Shown here one piece after another: positions 12,490 through 60,252 of a DNA stretch of 60,507 bases. The notes beneath the pieces were generated by a model. It made no database searches and had not been told where the DNA came from. It saw only the letters and a program-made list of their open reading frames with translations. Both the position numbers and the translations under genes were made by a program. Numbering within the stretch: position 1 is the first letter of the stretch; the number at the start of each line of letters is the position of its first letter. Origin of the DNA: Gemmatimonadota bacterium. GTDB taxonomy: Bacteria > Gemmatimonadota > Gemmatimonadetes > Gemmatimonadales > GWC2-71-9. The stretch covers positions 1 to 60,507 of the forward strand of contig JANRJZ010000166.1 in the NCBI GenBank assembly GCA_033763675.1, written 5' to 3'.

Positions 12490-12516
12490 TATGCCGCCCG
12501 GGCACCACCCTGTCAA
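12488..12516 (-). promoter_or_regulatory. Sigma70-type promoter of the lipoprotein-ROK-GH16-MFS operon
   Basis: Minus strand reads TTGACA (12516-12511), a 17-nt spacer, then CATACT (12493-12488). Confidence 0.7.
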
Positions 12517-12592
12517 GAACGGGCGGGCCGGGTGGCCGGCGCGGCCGTCGGGAGAAGCCGGAGTGCCGTGAAGAGGGTCGGGGCACCCTGGA

Positions 12593-12621
12593 TTGACACA
12601 ATAGAACGATCGTGCTTTTAT
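12593..12621 (+). promoter_or_regulatory. Sigma70-type promoter of tetR with TetR operator in the spacer
   Basis: TTGACA (12593-12598), 17 nt, then TTTTAT (12616-12621). The spacer contains the near-palindrome AGAACGA/TCGTGCT (12603-12616). ATG lies 5 nt after the -10. Confidence 0.62.
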
Positions 12622-12626
12622 GGGCC

Positions 12627-13232
12627 ATGTCCAAGGGCACCACGACCCGCCGTTCCATCCTCGACCACGCCATCGCCCTGGCCAGCGAGGTCGGGCTGGG
12701 CGGGCTCACCATCGGATCCCTGGCCGAGGAGCTGGACCTCTCCAAGAGCGGGCTGTACGCCCACTTCGGGTCCAAGGAGGCGCTGCAGATCCAGGTGCTG
12801 GACCACGCCGCCCTCAACTTCACCGAGGCGGTCGTCCGGCCGGCGCTCAAGGAACCCCGCGGCGCCCCCCGGATGCGGGCGCTGTTCGAGCGCTGGCTGG
12901 CGTGGGACCGGGACGGCGTCCTCCCGGGGGGCTGTCTCTTCGTCGCCGCGGCCTCGGAGCTGGACGACCGGGACGGCCCGGTCCGCGAACGGCTGGTGGA
13001 ACTGCAGCAGACCTGGATCGATGTGGTCCGGGTCTCGGTGGAGAAGGGAATCGAGTCGGGCGCCTTCCGCCGCGACGCGGACCCGGCGCAGTTCGCCCAG
13101 GACCTCCACGGCGTCATGCTCGGCTTCCACCACGGCGCGCGCCTGATGCGCGATCCCGACGCGGAGCCGCGCGCGCGGAAGGCCTTCGAGCGGTTGCTGG
13201 AGGCAGTGGCGGCGGTCCGGCAACTGCCGTAG
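12627..13232 (+). CDS. TetR/AcrR family transcriptional regulator
   Basis: HTH GLTIGSLAEELDLSKSGLYAHFGSKEAL; C-terminal GGCLF motif. Confidence 0.93.
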   Translation: MSKGTTTRRSILDHAIALASEVGLGGLTIGSLAEELDLSKSGLYAHFGSKEALQIQVLDHAALNFTEAVVRPALKEPRGAPRMRALFERWLAWDRDGVLPGGCLFVAAASELDDRDGPVRERLVELQQTWIDVVRVSVEKGIESGAFRRDADPAQFAQDLHGVMLGFHHGARLMRDPDAEPRARKAFERLLEAVAAVRQLP

Positions 13233-13270
13233 TTCGTCCCGTCGTCCGGTCGTTACCGTCAGGAGTTCAC

Positions 13271-14161
13271 ATGCTCGCACTCGCTCGGCTGGCGCTCGGG
13301 ACCGCGCAGCCCCTCGCACCGGACTTCGCCGCCTGGCTGGGCGAACGGCTCTTCTTCACCCCGCCGCGCCAGTCGCTCCCCGAGGGCGCCCGGCCGCTGC
13401 TCCACCGCGGGCGCCGGTTCCGGATCCTGGTGGACGGCCGCGAGATCCAGGGCTGGCGCTGGGGCCGCGGTCCCGCCGTCTACCTGCTGCACGGCTGGGG
13501 CGGGCGCGGCGGGCGGTACCTGCACTACATCGAGCCGCTCACAGAGCTGGGCCACTCCGTCGTGGTCTTCGATGCGCCGGGCCACGGCGCCAACCCGCAC
13601 GGCATGAGCTCGGCGCCGGAGTTCGCGCGGGCGCTCCAGGCGGTGGTCGACCTGTGCGGGCCGGCCCGTGCCGTGGTGGCCCACTCGCTGGGCGCGGCGG
13701 CGGCGGCGCTCGCGGTCCGCTGGGGCCTCCGGCCCGAGCGGCTCGTGCTGCTGGCGCCGCCCGCGGACGTGACCGAGTTCTTCGAGCCCTTTGCCCGGGC
13801 CGTGGGGCTGACGCAGGCCGTGATGGCGCGGCTGGTGGCCCGGAGTACCCGCCGGATCGGGCTTGCCTGGTCCGAGCTCGACATCCGGCGCCACGCCCCG
13901 AAGGAGCCGCTGCCGCTCCTCGTGGTGCATGACGTGGGCGACACGGTCGTGCCCTTCGCGGACGGCGTCGCGGTCGCGGAAGCCTGGGGCGGCCAGCTGC
14001 ACGCCACCCAGGGGCTGGGTCACAGCGGCCTGCTGCGGGACCGCGAGGTGCTGCGCACCGTGGCCGCCTTCGTCACTGGTGCCGCACCCGAGGATGTCGC
14101 GGCGGCAGTGGATCCGGCGGCGAAGGCGGAGCGGTGGTTGTGGGAGAGGTATCGGCGGTAG
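13271..14161 (+). CDS. Alpha/beta fold hydrolase
   Basis: RBS AGGAG upstream; LLHGWGG, FDAPGHG, AHSLG nucleophile, VHDVGDTVVP, GLGH. The TAG stop lies inside the 9-nt repeat. Confidence 0.88.
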   Translation: MLALARLALGTAQPLAPDFAAWLGERLFFTPPRQSLPEGARPLLHRGRRFRILVDGREIQGWRWGRGPAVYLLHGWGGRGGRYLHYIEPLTELGHSVVVFDAPGHGANPHGMSSAPEFARALQAVVDLCGPARAVVAHSLGAAAAALAVRWGLRPERLVLLAPPADVTEFFEPFARAVGLTQAVMARLVARSTRRIGLAWSELDIRRHAPKEPLPLLVVHDVGDTVVPFADGVAVAEAWGGQLHATQGLGHSGLLRDREVLRTVAAFVTGAAPEDVAAAVDPAAKAERWLWERYRR

Positions 14162-14188
14162 CGACGGTAGCGACGGTAGCGACGGTAG
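14156..14188 (+). repeat. Tandem 9-nt repeat (CGGTAGCGA) x ~3.7, left arm flanking the four-helix-bundle gene
   Basis: Read directly: cggtagcga cggtagcga cggtagcga cggtag. Confidence 0.95.
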
Positions 14189-14198
14189 GGTGGAGGGC

Positions 14199-14561
14199 TT
14201 ACGGACGCAGTTTCCCCACGACCTGGTACAAACGCCAGGTTACGATTCCGGCGCGATTCCGGAGCTCCTCAACCTCGGCGTGTGAGTCCGGCGGCAAGTA
14301 ACCCAGATCCTTCGACAGCCGAAGCAGATAGGTCAGCTCCGCGAGCGACCCGAGCGAAATATCGAGGAATCGCCGGAACTCCCTGCCACCTCGCTTCGCG
14401 GAGCCCTCCGCGATGTTGGTAGGAATGGATACAGCCGCGCGCCGGATCTGGCTGACCAACCCGAACCGTTCCTGGGCTGGCCACCCCTCCGTCAACCGGT
14501 ACACCTGCACCACTAGCGCATGGCAGAGCTGCCACGCCTCGAGCCGTTCAAAGGGAGCCAT
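14199..14561 (-). CDS. Four helix bundle protein (23S rRNA-IVS protein / Avd-like family)
   Basis: 120 aa with FERLEAWQ, ERFGLVSQIRRAAVSIPTNIAEG and FLDISLGSLAEL hallmark motifs. It is antisense to its neighbours and visibly more A/T-rich. Confidence 0.9.
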   Translation of the reverse strand: MAPFERLEAWQLCHALVVQVYRLTEGWPAQERFGLVSQIRRAAVSIPTNIAEGSAKRGGREFRRFLDISLGSLAELTYLLRLSKDLGYLPPDSHAEVEELRNRAGIVTWRLYQVVGKLRP

Positions 14562-14604
14562 GGCTCAGCATGGCGTCTCTCCGTCAACGCATCATCAACC
14601 GCTC

Positions 14605-14667
14605 CCGTTACCGTCGCTACCGTCGTTACCGTCGTTACCGTCGCTACCGTCACTACCGTCGCTACCG
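14605..14667 (-). repeat. Tandem 9-nt repeat (TCGYTACCG) x ~7, right arm; reverse complement of the left arm
   Basis: Read directly: ccgttaccg tcgctaccg tcgttaccg tcgttaccg tcgctaccg tcactaccg tcgctaccg. Confidence 0.95.
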
Positions 14668-14681
14668 TACATTCCCCCCTG

Positions 14682-15947
14682 ATGACCTCCCCCTCGCCAG
14701 CCCCGAATACCCCCGCCGATCTCGGTCGGTTGCGGATCAATCGTGACACCCCGCCCCCCGGCCTGCGGCGAGCGCTCTGGCGCAACCTGATCCTCGCGGC
14801 GGTGGCCCTGGCGCTGGTCGCGATCGTCCTCTACCTGCGGCGCGAGCAGGCGGTGCCGGTGGAGGTGTTCACCGTAACCTTGAACGGCGGCGGGGGCGCC
14901 GCGGGCGCCGCGAGCGCCAGCGTGACGGCCAACGGCTACGTGGTGGCGCGGACCCGAGCGGCGGTGTCGGCCAAGCTCGCGGGGCGGCTGGCGGAGCTGC
15001 GGGTGAGCGAGGGATCGCAGGTGCGCGCCGGCGAGGTGATCGCGCGGCTCGAGAACGACGAGTACGCGGCGCAGGTGAGTCAGGCCGAGGCGAATCTGGC
15101 CACCGCGCGGGCGGAGCTGATCGAGGCGACGGCGCGGCGGGACCAGCTGACCCGCGAGGCCCGGCGGGTCACTGACATCCGGCAGGAGAATCCCGACCTG
15201 GTGGCGGAGGAACAGGTGGAGGCGGCGCGGAGCGCGGCAGACCAGGCCGTGGCGCGGGTGGACGCCGCGGCGGCGCGGGTGCAGGCGGCGGAGGCGGAGC
15301 GGCGCTTCGCGGAGGCCACGCTCGAGTCCACGTTGATCCGGGCGCCGTTCACCGGCACCGTCCTGCGAAAGGAAGCGGAAGTGGGAGAAGTCGTGGCGCC
15401 TTCGGTCGGCGGTGGACTCACCCGCGGTGCGGTCGTCACCATGGCGGACTTCGCCACGCTCGAGGTGGAGGTGGACGTCAACGAGGCGTATATCGCGCGA
15501 GTGACGAACGGCCAGGGGGCCCGTATCACCCTCGACGCCTATCCCGACACCGGCTTCCGGGGTCGAGTGCGGCAGGTCGTCCCCACCGCCGACCGGCAGC
15601 GGGCCACGGTGCAGGTGAAGGTCGCGATCCTCGATCGCGACCGGCGCATCCTCCCCGAGATGGGGGCGCGGGTGGATTTCCTGGAGCCCGAGGCGCCGCG
15701 CCGTGACACCACGGCGGCCCGGACCCCGCGGATCCGGGTGCCCGCCGCCGCGGTACGCGTCCTGGAGGGGCAGTCGGTGGTCTGGCTGGTGCGGCAGGGC
15801 CGGCTGGTATCGAAGGTGGTGGACGCCGGCCCGGTGAGCGGCGGCTTTCGCGAGGTGCGCTCCGGCCTGGTGGGCGGCGAACAGCTGCTGACGGGGGGCG
15901 TGGAGGAGCCGAAGGAGGGGATGGCGGTGGTGGTGGCAGGGCGGTAG
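14682..15947 (+). CDS. Efflux periplasmic adaptor / membrane fusion protein (MacA/HlyD-like)
   Basis: N-terminal TM; VTANGYVVA, lipoyl halves (VSAKLAGRL...IRAPFTGTV), coiled coil, EVEVDVNEA, PTADRQRATV, ILPEMGARV. Confidence 0.9.
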   Translation: MTSPSPAPNTPADLGRLRINRDTPPPGLRRALWRNLILAAVALALVAIVLYLRREQAVPVEVFTVTLNGGGGAAGAASASVTANGYVVARTRAAVSAKLAGRLAELRVSEGSQVRAGEVIARLENDEYAAQVSQAEANLATARAELIEATARRDQLTREARRVTDIRQENPDLVAEEQVEAARSAADQAVARVDAAAARVQAAEAERRFAEATLESTLIRAPFTGTVLRKEAEVGEVVAPSVGGGLTRGAVVTMADFATLEVEVDVNEAYIARVTNGQGARITLDAYPDTGFRGRVRQVVPTADRQRATVQVKVAILDRDRRILPEMGARVDFLEPEAPRRDTTAARTPRIRVPAAAVRVLEGQSVVWLVRQGRLVSKVVDAGPVSGGFREVRSGLVGGEQLLTGGVEEPKEGMAVVVAGR

Positions 15948-15975
15948 CGACGGTACCGTCGCTACCGTCGTTACC
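15942..15975. repeat. Gene-less palindrome of the 9-nt repeat ('empty site')
   Basis: CGGTAGCGACGGT|ACCGTCGCTACCG is a perfect 26-bp palindrome (15942-15967), followed by a further TCGTTACC. It includes the adaptor gene's TAG. Confidence 0.92.
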
Positions 15976-16001
15976 AACGATCACAATACACCTGGAGCCC
16001 C

Positions 16002-16694
16002 GTGATGCCTCTCGTCGAAATCCGCGCCGTGGACAAGGCCTTCCAGCGCGACTCCGAGCGGGTGGAGATCTTCACCCGCCTCAACCTCGACATCGAGGAA
16101 GGCTCCTTCACCGCGCTGATGGGGCCGTCGGGGTCGGGGAAGTCCACCCTGCTCAACCTGGTGGCGGGGCTCGACCGGCCCACCAGCGGCAGCGTCCGGG
16201 TGGCCGGGGCGGAGGTGAGCGCCATGAGCCCGAACCAGCTGGCGCCGTGGCGGGCGCGGCACATCGGGTTCGTCTTCCAGCAGCTCAACCTGCTTCCGGT
16301 GCTCACCGCCTGGCAGAACGTGGAGCTACCGCTCCTGCTCACCAGCCTCTCGCGACGGGAGCGGGACGAACGGATCCGGCTGGCGCTCGGCGTGGTGGGG
16401 CTCGAGGACCGGATGAAGCACTTCCCCCGGCAGCTCTCGGGCGGGCAGGAGCAGCGGGTCGCGATCGCGCGGGCCATCGTGGCGGACCCGACCCTGGTAC
16501 TGCTGGATGAGCCCACCGGCCAGCTCGACGCGAAGAGCTCCCAGGACGTGCTGGCGCTGCTCAGCCGGCTCAACGACGAGTTCAAGAAGACCATCATCAT
16601 GGTGACCCACGACGCCCACGCGGCGGCGTCGGCGCGGACGGTGCTGCACCTCGAGAAGGGGCAGCTCATCGAGCGTCAGGGGGCGATGGCATGA
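16002..16694 (+). CDS. ABC transporter ATP-binding protein (LolD/MacB type)
   Basis: GPSGSGKST, LSGGQEQRVAIARA, LLDEPT, MVTHD. Confidence 0.94.
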   Translation: MMPLVEIRAVDKAFQRDSERVEIFTRLNLDIEEGSFTALMGPSGSGKSTLLNLVAGLDRPTSGSVRVAGAEVSAMSPNQLAPWRARHIGFVFQQLNLLPVLTAWQNVELPLLLTSLSRRERDERIRLALGVVGLEDRMKHFPRQLSGGQEQRVAIARAIVADPTLVLLDEPTGQLDAKSSQDVLALLSRLNDEFKKTIIMVTHDAHAAASARTVLHLEKGQLIERQGAMA

Positions 16695-18999: not shown

Positions 19000-19019
19000 G
19001 CGGTGGGGCGGTAGGGCGC

Positions 19020-19089
19020 GTGATGCGCGCGGGCGGGTGATGCGAGCGGGCGGGTGATGCGAGCGGGCGGGCACAAGGCCCGCCCGTAC
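19020..19089. repeat. 17-nt tandem repeat x3 ending in a REP-like palindrome
   Basis: GTGATGCG(C/A)GCGGGCGG at 19020, 19037 and 19054, then GGGCGGGC-ACAAG-GCCCGCCC-GTAC (19065-19089). Confidence 0.85.
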
Positions 19090-19286
19090 GGGATCCGCTT
19101 GCTGGGGCTCCTCTGCCGGATTCCCCTTCGCCGAGCCTGCCCCGCCCAATCGCCCAATCGGCCCTTGCCCTCCGGCGCCGCCTGACAGACTTTTCAGACG
19201 GATCCTGGCTGCGCCCCCGGAGAGCGCGCCGGCGATCCCCCGAGGCTCCCGGAGAGCCCGGCCCCCCCCTGCCAGCGAGTTACCTG

Positions 19287-20058: not shown

Positions 20059-20131
20059 AGGCGATTAGACGATTGGGCGATTAGGCGATTGGGTGATTGG
20101 GCCGCCTAATCGCCCAATCGCCCAATCGTCC
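20059..20131. repeat. Inverted arrays of 8-nt tandem repeat (RGGCGATT x5 / AATCGCCC x3) between convergent genes
   Basis: Read directly; the two arms are reverse complements and can form a hairpin. Confidence 0.92.
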
Positions 20132-38821: not shown

Positions 38822-38938
38822 AGCGATTGGGCGATTGGGCGATTGGGCGATTAGGCGATAGGGCGATTGGGCGATTGGGCGATAGGTTCGTACCGCCCTA
38901 CCGCCCTACCGCCCTACCGCCCTACCGCCCTACCGCCC
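38821..38938. repeat. 8-nt tandem repeats: GGGCGATT x8 then TACCGCCC x6 (imperfect inverted arms)
   Basis: Read directly between convergent genes; the GH57 TAG stop lies in the right arm. Confidence 0.95.
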
Positions 38939-41711: not shown

Positions 41712-41739
41712 CGGTAGCGACGGTAGCGACGGTATCGTC
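41712..41739 (+). repeat. Third locus of the 9-nt repeat (CGGTAGCGA x ~3)
   Basis: cggtagcga cggtagcga cggtatcgtc, immediately after the esterase TAG. Confidence 0.88.
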
Positions 41740-44070: not shown

Positions 44071-44170
44071 AGGGAAGGGGGAAGAGGGAAGCGGGTGCCG
44101 GCGGTGCTTCCCCCTTCACACTTCCCGCTTCCCGCTTCCCGTTTCCCGTTTCCCGTTTCCCGTTTCCCGG
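44071..44170. repeat. 7-nt tandem repeat (TTCCCGY x7) preceded by a degenerate complementary arm (RGGGAAG x3)
   Basis: ttcccgc x2, ttcccgt x4 and ttcccgg at 44122-44170; agggaag/ggggaag/agggaag at 44071-44091. Confidence 0.9.
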
Positions 44171-57752: not shown

Positions 57753-58310
57753 ATGGCACCACGATGGCTCAGGGCGGCGGCACTGGCCGCGCCCCTCATG
57801 GCGGCCCCGCTCGCGGCCCAGGAGCGGCCCACGCCGCTGGCGGTCGGCGCGGTGGCCCCCGACTTCGCGCTCACCGGCGCCACGCGGGAGGGCGTCCTCG
57901 AACGACCGGTGCGGCTCTCGGATTTCCGTGACCAGACCCTGGTGATCGCCTTCTTCTACCGGGCCCGGACCAAGGGCTGAACCGTCCAAATGGATGCGTA
58001 CCGTGATCAGTACGCGACGCTCATTCCCGAAGGCCGGAAGGTCACCCTGCTGGCCGTCAGCGTGGACTCCGCGGCGGCCCTGGCCGGCTGGGCCCGGGAC
58101 GCGGACTACCCGTTCGGGTTTCTCAGCGACCCCGACGGCGCGATGGGCCGGGCCTACGGCGCCTGGGATCCGAACTACAAGGTGGACAACCGCACCCTCT
58201 ACGTGATCGGGCCCGACGGACGGATCGCCCATGTCATGGCGCCGTTCCGCGAGGTGGACCCGCAGGCCTACCGGGAGCTGGCGGCGGCGATCGCGAAGGC
58301 CAGTCGGTAG
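57753..58310 (+). CDS. Secreted peroxiredoxin-like (AhpC/TSA, BCP-type) selenoprotein, Sec at TGA 57978-57980
   Basis: ORFs 57753-57980 and 57990-58310 are in frame. The joined sequence reads APDF...FFYRARTKG-U-TVQ...LSDPDG...RTLYVIGPDG, with TGA at the peroxidatic TxxC position. There is no other Cys. Confidence 0.85.
57981..58019 (+). promoter_or_regulatory. Putative bacterial SECIS hairpin
   Basis: GCGTAC (57996-58001), loop CGTGATCA, GTACGC (58010-15), plus a lower CGTC/GACG pair. The loop starts 22 nt after the UGA with G at its second position. Confidence 0.65.
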
Positions 58311-58403
58311 GGCGATTGGGCGATTAGGCGATTGGGCGATTGGGCGATTAGGCGATTGGGCGATTAGCCTGCCGCCCTACCGCCCTACCGCCCTACCGCC
58401 TAC
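58310..58403. repeat. 8-nt tandem repeats RGGCGATT x7 then TACCGCCC x3 between convergent genes
   Basis: Read directly; the array starts at the Prx CGG-TAG and ends at the dps TAG. Confidence 0.95.
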
Positions 58404-58934: not shown

Positions 58935-58990
58935 CCTGCCGTCCTGCCGTCCTGCCGTCCTGCCGTCCTGCCGCCCTACCGCCCTATCGC
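58935..58990. repeat. Morphing 8-nt tandem repeat CCTGCCGT x4 > CCTGCCGC > CCTACCGC > CCTATCGC
   Basis: Read directly; the last unit contains the thrC TAG. Confidence 0.9.
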
Positions 58991-60252
58991 CCCATCACCC
59001 GCTCCACCGCCCGCAGGTCCGCCTCGATCTCCACCGGCCGGTTGGCTCGGGCAGGCGCCGGTTCCATCTCCTGGTGATAGGTGATCAGCGCCCCCGGATC
59101 CTTGAGCACATGCCCGGTGAGCACCGCCACTACCTGCGCGTCCAGTGGGATGATACGCTCCTCCCGGAGCCTGCGGGCGCCCGCCACGCTGGCGGCGCTT
59201 GCCGGCTCGCAGCCGACGCCCGCCGCGTCGATCACCGCCTTGGCCTCGAGGATCTCGGCGTCGGTCACCTGGGTCACGACGCCATCGGTCTCCCGGATGG
59301 TGCGCACCCCGCGGTCCCAGCTTGCCGGGTCCCCGATCTTGATCGCCGTCGCGATGGTCTCCGCCTTGACCGTGCGCCGCGCCGCGAACCCCTCGCGGAA
59401 GCCCCGCGCGAACGGCGCCGCCCCGGCCGCCTGCACCGCGGCGATGCGCGGCAGCCGGTCAATGAGCCCCAGCGCCCGCGCTTCCAGCAGCGCCTTCCCG
59501 AACGCCGCGGTATTCCCGAGGTTGCCGGCGGGCAGCACGATCCAGTCGGGGACCTGCCAGGCGAGCTGGTGCAGCAGCTCGAGGACGATGGTCTTCTGCC
59601 CCTCGAGCCGGAACGGGTTGATGGAATTGAGCAGGTAGACGCCGAGCTGGTCCGCCGCCTCCTGCACCAGCCGGAGGCAGGCGTCGAAGTCACCCCGCAC
59701 CAGCAGGGTCCGCGCGCCGTACGCCAGGGACTGGGACAGCTTTCCCAGCGCCACCTGGCCCGCGGGAACGAAGACCAGCGCCGGAATCCCGGCCTGGGCG
59801 CCGTACGCGGCCAGCGCGGCGGAGGTATTCCCCGTCGAGGCGCAGGCGATGGCCCGGGCGCCGATCCGCCGCGCCTGGGTGACCCCCACGGTCATGCCCC
59901 GGTCCTTGAAGGAGCCGGTGGGATTGTGTCCCTCGTGCTTGAGCCGGAGGTCCGGCAGGCCCGCCCACTCGGCGATCGGCAGCCGGCGGAGCAGGGGGGT
60001 GTTTCCCTCGGGATGCGTGACGATGTGTCCACCGGCGCTGGGTAGTACCAGCTCCCGGTAGCGCCAGACGCCGGAGCGGTTCGCCTCCTCCCGGTCGGCG
60101 AGGCGCCCCTCGAACAGCCGACGCAGGCTGGCGCCATCCTCGGCGGGCGGGTCGTGGCGCAGCTCGAGCAGCCCGCCGCAGGGGCAGCGCACCGCCGGGT
60201 CCAGCTCGGAGAACCGGTCGTCGCAGGCGGCGCAGACTTGCAGGGTGGCCAT
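58984..60252 (-). CDS. thrC: Threonine synthase
   Basis: Zn-ribbon CxxC/CxCGG, EGNTPL, EGHNPTGSFKDRG, CASTGNT, NSINPFRLEGQKT, LTGHVLKD. Confidence 0.93.
   Translation of the reverse strand: MATLQVCAACDDRFSELDPAVRCPCGGLLELRHDPPAEDGASLRRLFEGRLADREEANRSGVWRYRELVLPSAGGHIVTHPEGNTPLLRRLPIAEWAGLPDLRLKHEGHNPTGSFKDRGMTVGVTQARRIGARAIACASTGNTSAALAAYGAQAGIPALVFVPAGQVALGKLSQSLAYGARTLLVRGDFDACLRLVQEAADQLGVYLLNSINPFRLEGQKTIVLELLHQLAWQVPDWIVLPAGNLGNTAAFGKALLEARALGLIDRLPRIAAVQAAGAAPFARGFREGFAARRTVKAETIATAIKIGDPASWDRGVRTIRETDGVVTQVTDAEILEAKAVIDAAGVGCEPASAASVAGARRLREERIIPLDAQVVAVLTGHVLKDPGALITYHQEMEPAPARANRPVEIEADLRAVERVMGR

Follow-up and report, generated by a model that had tools for sequence, protein, structure and literature searches.

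Four-helix-bundle genes enclosed by inverted arrays of dispersed short tandem repeats in Gemmatimonadales and other bacteria

Why should a small protein-coding gene sit in the loop of a potential hairpin whose arms are tandem repeats? The question is raised by a 60,507-nt stretch of DNA from a Gemmatimonadota bacterium (contig JANRJZ010000166.1), the whole of which is called the window here. In it, between an alpha/beta hydrolase gene and the adaptor gene of an exporter, a 120-aa gene of the four-helix-bundle (4HB) family PF05635/TIGR02436 is enclosed by an array of a 9-nt unit on one side and by the reverse-complementary array on the other. The 4HB family, also called S23 or intervening sequence (IVS) proteins, is widespread and often multi-copy, with structures solved and no function assigned. 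We compared the locus with other 4HB loci in the genome of the window (G000; 3.96 Mb, 70.8% GC, 95% complete), in its order and in other phyla; G- and L-numbers denote the genomes and loci compared, and C-numbers the contigs of G000. The pattern is genuine and lies far beyond chance expectation: as a rule, 4HB genes are enclosed by matched inverted repeats, both in this order and in several other phyla.

Matched inverted repeats around 4HB genes

Each of the seven TIGR02436 genes of G000 is enclosed by inverted arrays of a short repeat, with a unit that differs from gene to gene. Across the order Gemmatimonadales (a sample of 76 4HB loci from 41 genomes, with units of 7-9 nt), arrays were called on both sides at 59 of the 76 loci and the units of the two sides were complementary within two mismatches at 55. 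Among these 55 pairs 33 are exact and 21 differ by one mismatch (54/55 at 0 or 1), against 5.6% at one mismatch or fewer when arms are paired across loci as a null; the loops of the paired loci measure 397-586 nt. A generic inverted-repeat test at a threshold of at least 30 bits was positive at 60/72 4HB loci, compared with 2/29 hydrolase loci and 3/14 RAYT-like loci used as controls. Loci devoid of arrays belong mostly to one clade in another family of the order and carry non-tandem inverted repeats of 28-115 nt. The long inverted repeat is therefore the constant feature, and tandem arrays are its commonest build.

The architecture extends beyond the order. In a set of 80 named loci, matched arrays were found at 38/51 loci from Gemmatimonadota and at 9/29 from other phyla, and among the named loci of Bacteroidota and Chloroflexota many carry a 7-mer array on one or both sides. 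Most of the 22 loci in five whole genomes (Chryseobacterium, Dyadobacter, Saccharicrinis, Poribacteria and Anaerolineales) have 7-8-mer arrays, examples of paired units being AATTTGAA with AATTTTCA, TTGAATGA with TCAATCAT, and AGTTATA with AACTTAT. On finished plasmids of cyanobacteria the arrays reach right up to the start and stop codons of the 4HB gene, and the arms are complementary at 4/6 loci, with units TCAGGAG and CTGACTC in N. punctiforme, TCAGAAT and ATTCTGA in T. variabilis, and AGGAGATA and ATCTCCTA in Picosynechococcus; at one of the six, on pGamma of Nostoc PCC 7120, the arrays are non-complementary. On a plasmid of Calothrix PCC 7716 (L293), the 4HB gene has an HlyD-like secretion gene on one side and an ABC exporter gene on the other; the resemblance to the window context may be coincidence. 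Many of the loci examined lie at contig ends, and 4HB cassettes are probably under-counted in metagenome-assembled genomes because contigs break at the arrays.

At the window locus, an inverted-repeat search returned arms of 40-41 nt with 88-90% complementarity and a perfect core of 16 nt. Folding of 14130-14700 as RNA joins the two arrays in a stem of ~36 bp at -255.9 kcal/mol, a value reached by 0/100 shuffled controls (-215.9 +/- 7.3; z -5.5). The upstream arm is G-rich on the coding strand in 86/102 pairs. In public sequencing runs (Logan contigs), contigs from three DNA runs span the 4HB interior and end at the arrays. Contigs of the RNA run X16 leave the cassette uncovered, an outcome neutral as to excision, and the runs yielded no RNA ends. 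Contig joints leading from 14187 to 14618 or 14627, with 20 other letters between, were considered as excision products and rejected; most simply they represent other hairpin loci of the 9-mer family.

A first-pass annotation of the window, made from its sequence without database searches, had described a 4HB gene between inverted 9-nt arrays able to pair into a long stem around it, and both the arrays and their potential to pair are confirmed by the Tandem Repeats Finder (TRF) calls, the profile scores and the fold. Its copy numbers of ~3.7 and ~7 give way to 4.6 and 6.7 in the TRF output. It was also correct in placing the gene antisense to the hydrolase-exporter operon, on the minus strand, and in calling it more A/T-rich: its GC is 0.628 and its GC at third codon positions (GC3) 0.760, against a GC3 of 0.91-0.96 in five neighbouring genes. 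Likewise, the neighbouring genes include no transposase, integrase or reverse transcriptase (RT), as it had stated. GC lies below that of the flanks at 33/35 4HB loci. Lowered GC3 is thus a trait common to the family, and for this reason we rejected it as proof of recent transfer at the window locus.

The window open reading frame (ORF) is an unambiguous PF05635/TIGR02436 member, scoring 115.5 bits against PF05635 (cut-off 33.8; E 1.6e-33) and 107.7 bits against TIGR02436 (cut-off 24). Its AlphaFold2 (AF2) model (mean predicted local distance difference test, pLDDT, 97.1) consists of four long helices and has the fold of Xcc0516 and BT_0352, with template-modelling (TM) scores of 0.94 to PDB 2GSC (Xcc0516 of Xanthomonas campestris; 43% identity, profile match E 3e-38) and 0.81 to 2RLD. 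Five chains are deposited for the structure of Xcc0516, the nearest solved relative, and PMC4990558 describes this relative as a toroidal homopentamer. A conserved GxxRxxxSxxxNxxE motif has been reported for the family (PMC3936711). Over 29 aligned proteins, N49, E52 and G53 of this motif region are invariant and R41 and S45 are conserved in at least 90%.

Upstream of the 4HB genes the spacer (median 66 nt) contains a recurring TTGAYG...TTGA motif, and a median of 6 nt separates the stop codon from the downstream arm. The motif suggests that in Gemmatimonadales the 4HB gene has its own promoter within the loop. A scan of 13900-14900 for sigma-70 consensus promoters and intrinsic terminators returned nothing, so this promoter reading is a lead only; in the cyanobacterial cassettes the loop has no room for a promoter. 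An in-frame TAG makes one 4HB copy of G000 (L004, C87:5037-5354) a possible pseudogene, and its arms, GGCGGTTC x3.1 and GCCGAACC x10.4, are still well matched.

Units and proteins vary together. Proteins with 7-mer units and those with 8/9-mer units form separate clades in the tree, and near proteins share the same or similar units. Syntenic orthologous cassettes have common outer flanks across species and differ in their unit, both arms having changed together (for example, TAGTGCC vs AGTACTT and AGGGTGT vs TAGGGGC). Such joint change fits selection for pairing or for a common recognition partner.

Dispersed units and filled, empty and relocated sites

In G000 and in two other phyla, arrays built from a 4HB-flanking unit are also dispersed through the genome as a family, and they stand mostly at gene 3' ends. 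G000 contains 657 arrays (7-9-nt units, at least three copies), or ~166 per Mb, and its seven commonest array families are those of the seven 4HB-flanking units: 449 of the 657 arrays lie within one mismatch of these units (147, 119, 63, 51, 33, 18 and 18), the largest other family numbering 13. Under abundance-weighted random placement, the arrangement of one 4HB gene per each of the seven top families has P ~6e-5. The 9-mer family of the window contributes 33 arrays genome-wide. By layout, 106 arrays stand in adjacent inverted pairs, i.e., gene-less hairpins, and 551 are solitary; by gap type, 132 are convergent and 26 divergent, against a baseline of 516 and 507 from a crude gene caller. 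This caller is home-made and based on GC frame, so that some strands are wrong (e.g., that of the hydrolase) and 5' ends over-extended; its count of arrays inside genes (236) is unreliable, and the convergent/divergent contrast alone was used. No sense/antisense bias was seen among the solitary arrays of G000 (44 vs 37), and RNA-level strand specificity was rejected.

In other phyla, the pattern (AGTTATA)3 has 56 matches in the Poribacteria genome with the 4HB gene that it flanks and 0 in four other genomes, and (TTGAATGA)3 has 17 matches, in the Dyadobacter genome only; reversed-pattern controls for both searches gave 0 matches. Within the genus, array families are patchy and mostly track the cognate gene, and (AGGCGTTG)3 occurs in G020 only. 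In 200-kb samples, array density is 145 and 100 per Mb in two 4HB-rich genomes and 30, 45 and 70 per Mb in three genomes without a 4HB match. Dispersal is not confined to tandem units: in G031, from another family of the order, 4HB genes (L077, L080, L083, L092, L101) are flanked by ~60-nt non-tandem inverted repeats resembling repetitive extragenic palindromes (REP-like), and a 62-nt arm is present 13 times, including gene-less inverted doublets with ~70-nt loops.

Arms and gene belong together, as complementary arms are kept in orthologues and the gene with its arms is found at different sites in close relatives. In the two nearest relatives of G000 (hydrolases 92-93% identical) the junction between the hydrolase and adaptor genes holds a homocysteine S-methyltransferase gene and no 4HB gene. 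In G042, the closest relative, a perfect gene-less 9-mer hairpin is found at this junction right after the hydrolase stop, and the apex of this hairpin (GGTA/CC) coincides exactly with the start of the G000 cassette interior. G042 carries the orthologous 4HB gene, between the same 9-mer arms, 4.8 kb away, 3' of the second permease gene and oppositely oriented relative to the operon; identity is 88% at the amino acid level and 81% at the nucleotide level over 490 nt, arms included. At the corresponding site of the window (19014-19234) there are 8-mer arrays and a 17-mer array (GGGCGGGTGATGCGAGC x3.4, at 19014-19071) and no 4HB gene. At both 9-mer cassette sites the first repeat unit coincides with the Arg-stop of the upstream gene, CGG TAG in the window (14156-14161) and CGG TAA in G042 (L295, ~1920-1925), which suggests that cassettes enter where the host sequence resembles the unit. 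The homocysteine S-methyltransferase has 248 aa in G042 (L040, 686-1432) vs 312 aa in G015 (L039, 2482-3420); the shortened G042 gene may be decaying, which would fit its absence in G000.

Five cassettes of G042 were placed against G000. One is relocated; three of the other four are syntenic, and one is at a syntenic site with a 58%-identical protein. In this last pair, L297 of G042 and L003 of G000 (C182), the one flank that maps beside the G000 cassette is ~95% identical and the interiors have no blastn match; the other flank of L297 maps to C132, as C182 ends in the arm. This contrast points to fast divergence or to in-place replacement of the cassette. A filled and an empty site can also be compared in Picosynechococcus, where the PCC 7003 plasmid (L291) carries a cassette between cmr2 and cmr3 inside a type III-B operon and pAQ6 of PCC 7002 (L294) has 12 nt and no arrays at that place. 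Gene and arrays therefore arrived together at the site between cmr2 and cmr3. In the filled site, the upstream array contains a second copy of the final 8 nt of cmr2 (GAATTTGA).

Layout of the window locus

The coordinates of the cassette, its flanking genes and related sites are collected in Table 1. The last Arg codon of the hydrolase gene and its TAG stop (14159-14161) lie inside the first full repeat unit of the left arm, and the right arm ends 13 nt upstream of the ATG of the adaptor gene, so that the cassette occupies the entire intergenic gap. The surrounding cluster encodes a TetR regulator, the alpha/beta hydrolase, the HlyD-type adaptor, an ABC ATPase and two FtsX/MacB permeases. A search of 12500-16500 against Rfam gave nothing at E 0.1 or below. 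PADLOC returned no defence-system match, and a defence-system reading was rejected on this ground.

Table 1. Features of the 4HB cassette and related sites, in window coordinates
Feature	Position	Strand	Basis and remarks
Left arm, (GGTAGCGAC)x4.6	14148..14188	+ strand G-rich	TRF, 9-nt unit, 93% matches; inverted-repeat search
Spacer, left arm to 4HB stop codon	14189..14198	-	Sequence; family median 6 nt
4HB gene, 120 aa, PF05635/TIGR02436	14199..14561	-	ORF, profile scores, AF2 model; conserved R41-S45-N49-E52 motif
Upstream spacer in loop, 47 nt, with TTGATG...TTGACG motif	14562..14608	-	Motif recurrent upstream of related 4HB genes
Right arm, (TACCGTCGC)x6.7, reverse complement of left arm	14609..14668		TRF, 92% matches; inverted-repeat search
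Alpha/beta hydrolase gene, flanking	13271..14161	+	Probe for orthologous junction in relatives
HlyD-family membrane-fusion (adaptor) gene of MacB-type exporter, flanking	14682..15947	+	
Short extra array of the same 9-mer family, (TACCGTCGC)x2.4, in gap between adaptor and ABC ATPase genes	15954..15975		TRF
Extra array of the same 9-mer family, (CGGTAGCGA)x2.6	41712..41734		TRF
Site 3' of second permease gene; orthologous 4HB cassette here in G042	19014..19234		TRF and comparison

The window also contains gene-less hairpins of other families (GGCGATTG with CGCCCAAT, and AGGGAAG with GCTTCCC) and arrays of different families that abut each other (20060-20128; 38823-38938; 44071-44169; 58310-58400; 58935-59000). 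Genome-wide, G000 has 66 adjoining array pairs with unrelated units at a gap of 30 nt or less. At two places in G000 (C27:5342-5457 and C178:54835-54951), 9-mer hairpins surround a small GC-rich terminator-like stem-loop (CCCTCCGG...CCGGAGGG).

Interpretation and comparison with known systems

We consider it probable that the window locus is a chromosomal, non-rRNA copy of an IVS-type cassette that shares the organisation of RAYT/REPIN and has a 4HB protein instead. On this reading a long inverted repeat, made here of tandem short units, would carry the 4HB gene in its loop. By homology to rRNA IVSs, for which processing by RNase III is established by experiment, the arms may pair in read-through RNA and so present a substrate to RNase III; alternatively, pairing might take place in single-stranded DNA. 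The architecture further suggests that a pentameric 4HB protein could recognise its own repeat unit and help to maintain or spread it, and the cassette would enter at, or leave, the apex of a cognate hairpin beside a unit-like stop codon. A wider and more tentative proposal is that PF05635 proteins might be the missing partners of 7-9-nt tandem repeat families such as the cyanobacterial short tandemly repeated repetitive (STRR) sequences, Xanthomonas GGGAATC and the Geobacter paired octamers, each pentamer recognising its own unit. Gene and repeat would then form a heritable, occasionally mobile partnership based on a non-enzymatic nucleic-acid-binding fold and parallel to RAYT/REPIN, and the 23S rRNA IVSs would be such cassettes that landed in rRNA.

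The first-pass annotation had proposed a self-contained unit, analogous to RAYT/REPIN or excised from mRNA like an IVS. In outline this was right, and it is partly supported. The unit is absent from the hydrolase-adaptor junction of the two closest relatives, and the same gene and arms stand elsewhere in G042. In architecture the RAYT/REPIN analogy stands: each 4HB gene comes with its own repeat unit, which is dispersed as single arrays and gene-less inverted doublets. The IVS analogy stands too, in that tandem heptamers are present where RNase III acts on a Coxiella 23S IVS (PMC4990558). Two of the checks that the annotation had named came out in its favour, namely the flanks of PF05635/TIGR02436 genes (7/7 in G000 and 55/76 in the order with inverted arrays) and presence or absence at the orthologous junction. 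Action of the protein on the repeats, RNA excision at the stem and the route of movement are predictions.

A number of observations weigh against the reading as an IVS-type cassette with a cognate repeat. The 4HB protein has no recognisable nuclease or recombinase motif. Solitary arrays make up 551 of the 657, and pairing is unable to explain them; the counts of gene context depend on the crude gene caller. Enclosure has exceptions, with 21/76 loci lacking a called array pair and 12/72 lacking an inverted repeat of at least 30 bits. The same is true of the cognate relation: no 4HB gene was detected in G001 (28 (GGGCGATT)3 matches, 70 arrays/Mb) or G013 (45/Mb), no cognate gene was present among the loci examined for the 20 (AGTACCG)3 matches of G016 and the 8 (AGTGCCC)3 matches of G020, and the unit of G034 is confined to its cassette, so that dispersal is not universal. 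Most cassettes are syntenic across species, which means that movement is rare. Finally, gene conversion between arms could give concerted arm change without selection.

Several of these points would suit an autoregulated global regulator, in which case the 4HB protein would be a resident, non-mobile binder of double-stranded DNA, the flanking arrays its own operators and the solitary arrays its regulon or gene-end roadblocks. The solitary majority with no strand bias relative to transcription, the preference for convergent over divergent gaps and the vertical inheritance of many cassettes at syntenic sites all speak for it, and the Geobacter metallireducens genome paper, in the part available, proposed 'unidentified global regulators' for paired tandem octamer/heptamer sites (PMC2700814). 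We nevertheless regard a regulator as unlikely, given that an entire clade has long non-tandem inverted repeats and not arrays, that sites are filled or empty and vary from one genome to another, that cassettes are wedged into operons (e.g., between cmr2 and cmr3), that GC falls under the flanks at nearly all loci compared and that units turn over between close species. The reverse order of events would have array hairpins arise by themselves, through slippage or palindrome extension at terminators, with 4HB genes inserting and surviving at their apices and exerting no action in trans on the repeats. The exact position of the G000 interior at the apex of the G042 gene-less hairpin would follow from this, as would the small terminator-like stem-loops inside some 9-mer hairpins, the 59 gene-less adjacent inverted pairs of G000 and the arrays in genomes without a detected 4HB gene. 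It accounts poorly for the empty PCC 7002 site without arrays, for the G034 unit found at its cassette only, for seven genes distributed one each over the top seven families, for protein clades that follow repeat period and unit, and for a pattern seen in no other gene family (hydrolase and RAYT-like loci as controls); we rate it as quite improbable.

Other explanations carry far less weight. With ~166 arrays per Mb in G000 and the same 9-mer in neighbouring gaps of the cluster, a small gene might lie between two arrays by chance in generally array-decorated intergenic regions; yet this is already contradicted by the control loci (2/29 and 3/14) and by matched arms at 7/7 loci in G000 and 55/76 in the order, and the same architecture recurs in AT-rich genomes of other phyla and on finished plasmids, making coincidence very improbable. 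We give next to no credence to an accessory protein (Avd) of a diversity-generating retroelement (DGR) acting with an RT. The fold is common to both (TM 0.78 to chains of 4DWL and 8UBE), and there are weak matches to bAvd, NF033474 and PHROG 3206; the NF033474 score is 23.7 bits vs a cut-off of 80, a template/variable repeat pair is absent, and the idea is already contradicted by the lack of any RT match (PF00078, RVT_1) in the whole 95%-complete genome. A RAYT as the driver was rejected as well: 1 of 18 RAYT-like loci is array-enclosed, and 17 homologous loci in relatives have no inverted array pair. The enclosed gene (C178:117-617; L188, C178:1-777) encodes a 167-aa RAYT-like HUH protein with the motif NHFHAIL (Y1_Tnp 19.6 bits, cut-off 23), and its arms, (GCTCGGCG)x6 and (CCGCCGAG)x9.6, belong to the same family as those of the 4HB cassette on C30. 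The sole clear Y1_Tnp gene of G000 (C224) has an array on one side only.

If the reading as an IVS-type cassette with a cognate repeat is true, it joins two loose ends, the function of the 4HB family and the origin and function of heptamer/octamer repeats. Members of the 4HB family were reported earlier from cas loci (PMC3936711, PMC10910872), and the available excerpts on heptamer/octamer repeats in Xanthomonas and Nostoc (PMC4692102), Geobacter (PMC2700814) and Beggiatoaceae (PMC4679880) describe them without an associated gene. No link of the PF05635 family to tandem repeats was found in open-access papers and bioRxiv, as far as their accessible text goes; subscription journals or supplements could hold one. 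As far as found, the window locus is a new version of an IVS-type cassette and the family-wide rule is undescribed. The rule, by which each gene is bounded by inverted arms of its own repeat and this repeat is dispersed, makes cognate binding, stem processing and repeat maintenance testable hypotheses. It also has practical sides, as cassettes lie inside operons, including cas operons, and break short-read assemblies.

Among known systems, the closest in content are the 23S rRNA IVSs with an S23p/PF05635 ORF (Leptospira, Coxiella and others). Like the window cassette, they have a protein of the same family in the loop, terminal inverted repeats that form the closing stem (in the window, arms of 40 nt at 90%) and a GC lower than that of the host. 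In the portion of the source available, the Coxiella IVS is described with tandem heptamers (GACAGAT x3) whose copy number varies between strains and which lie at the RNase III site, the enzyme excising the IVS with a cut at the first of the three heptamers (PMC4990558). Unlike these IVSs, the window cassette lies between protein-coding genes (hydrolase and HlyD-type) and not in a 23S rRNA helix, its arms consist wholly of a 9-nt tandem array, its gene is antisense to the flanking operon and its unit is dispersed in the genome; excision is a prediction here.

The closest in organisation is REPIN/RAYT, known from the work of Bertels & Rainey and of Nunvar et al. There, a single-copy gene is reportedly flanked by inverted copies of its own repeat, which is said to be dispersed as singlets and inverted doublets, extragenically and near gene 3' ends, with one gene per repeat family and largely vertical inheritance. 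The 4HB genes are similar in that inverted copies of a repeat flank them and the repeat also occurs elsewhere as singlets and doublets (in G000, G031 and two other phyla), in the assignment of seven genes to the seven top families and in synteny across species. They differ in that the protein is a 120-aa four-helix bundle without HUH/Y1 motifs (a Pfam scan gave PF05635 and bAvd only, no Y1_Tnp) and in that the repeats are tandem 7-9-mers, with ~60-nt REP-like arms in one clade.

The dispersed arrays themselves resemble the species-specific heptamer/octamer tandem repeats presented in the available parts of earlier reports, i.e., the cyanobacterial STRR, Xanthomonas GGGAATC, the Geobacter paired octamers and Beggiatoaceae TAACTGA (PMC4692102, PMC2700814, PMC4679880). 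Both have 7-8-nt periods, lie between genes, often form convergent inverted pairs and differ in copy number between relatives; in the text searched, the earlier repeats are not tied to a gene, whereas the top families of G000 each have a cognate 4HB gene. DGR Avd (PDB 4DWL, 8UBE) has the four-helix-bundle fold and distant sequence similarity in common with the window protein; unlike DGRs, the window has no RT, template repeat or variable repeat, and the score is under the family cut-off. The arrays are also distinct from CRISPR arrays, which combine repeats of ~24-48 nt with unique spacers, as the units of the window are 9 nt long and run head to tail with no spacers.

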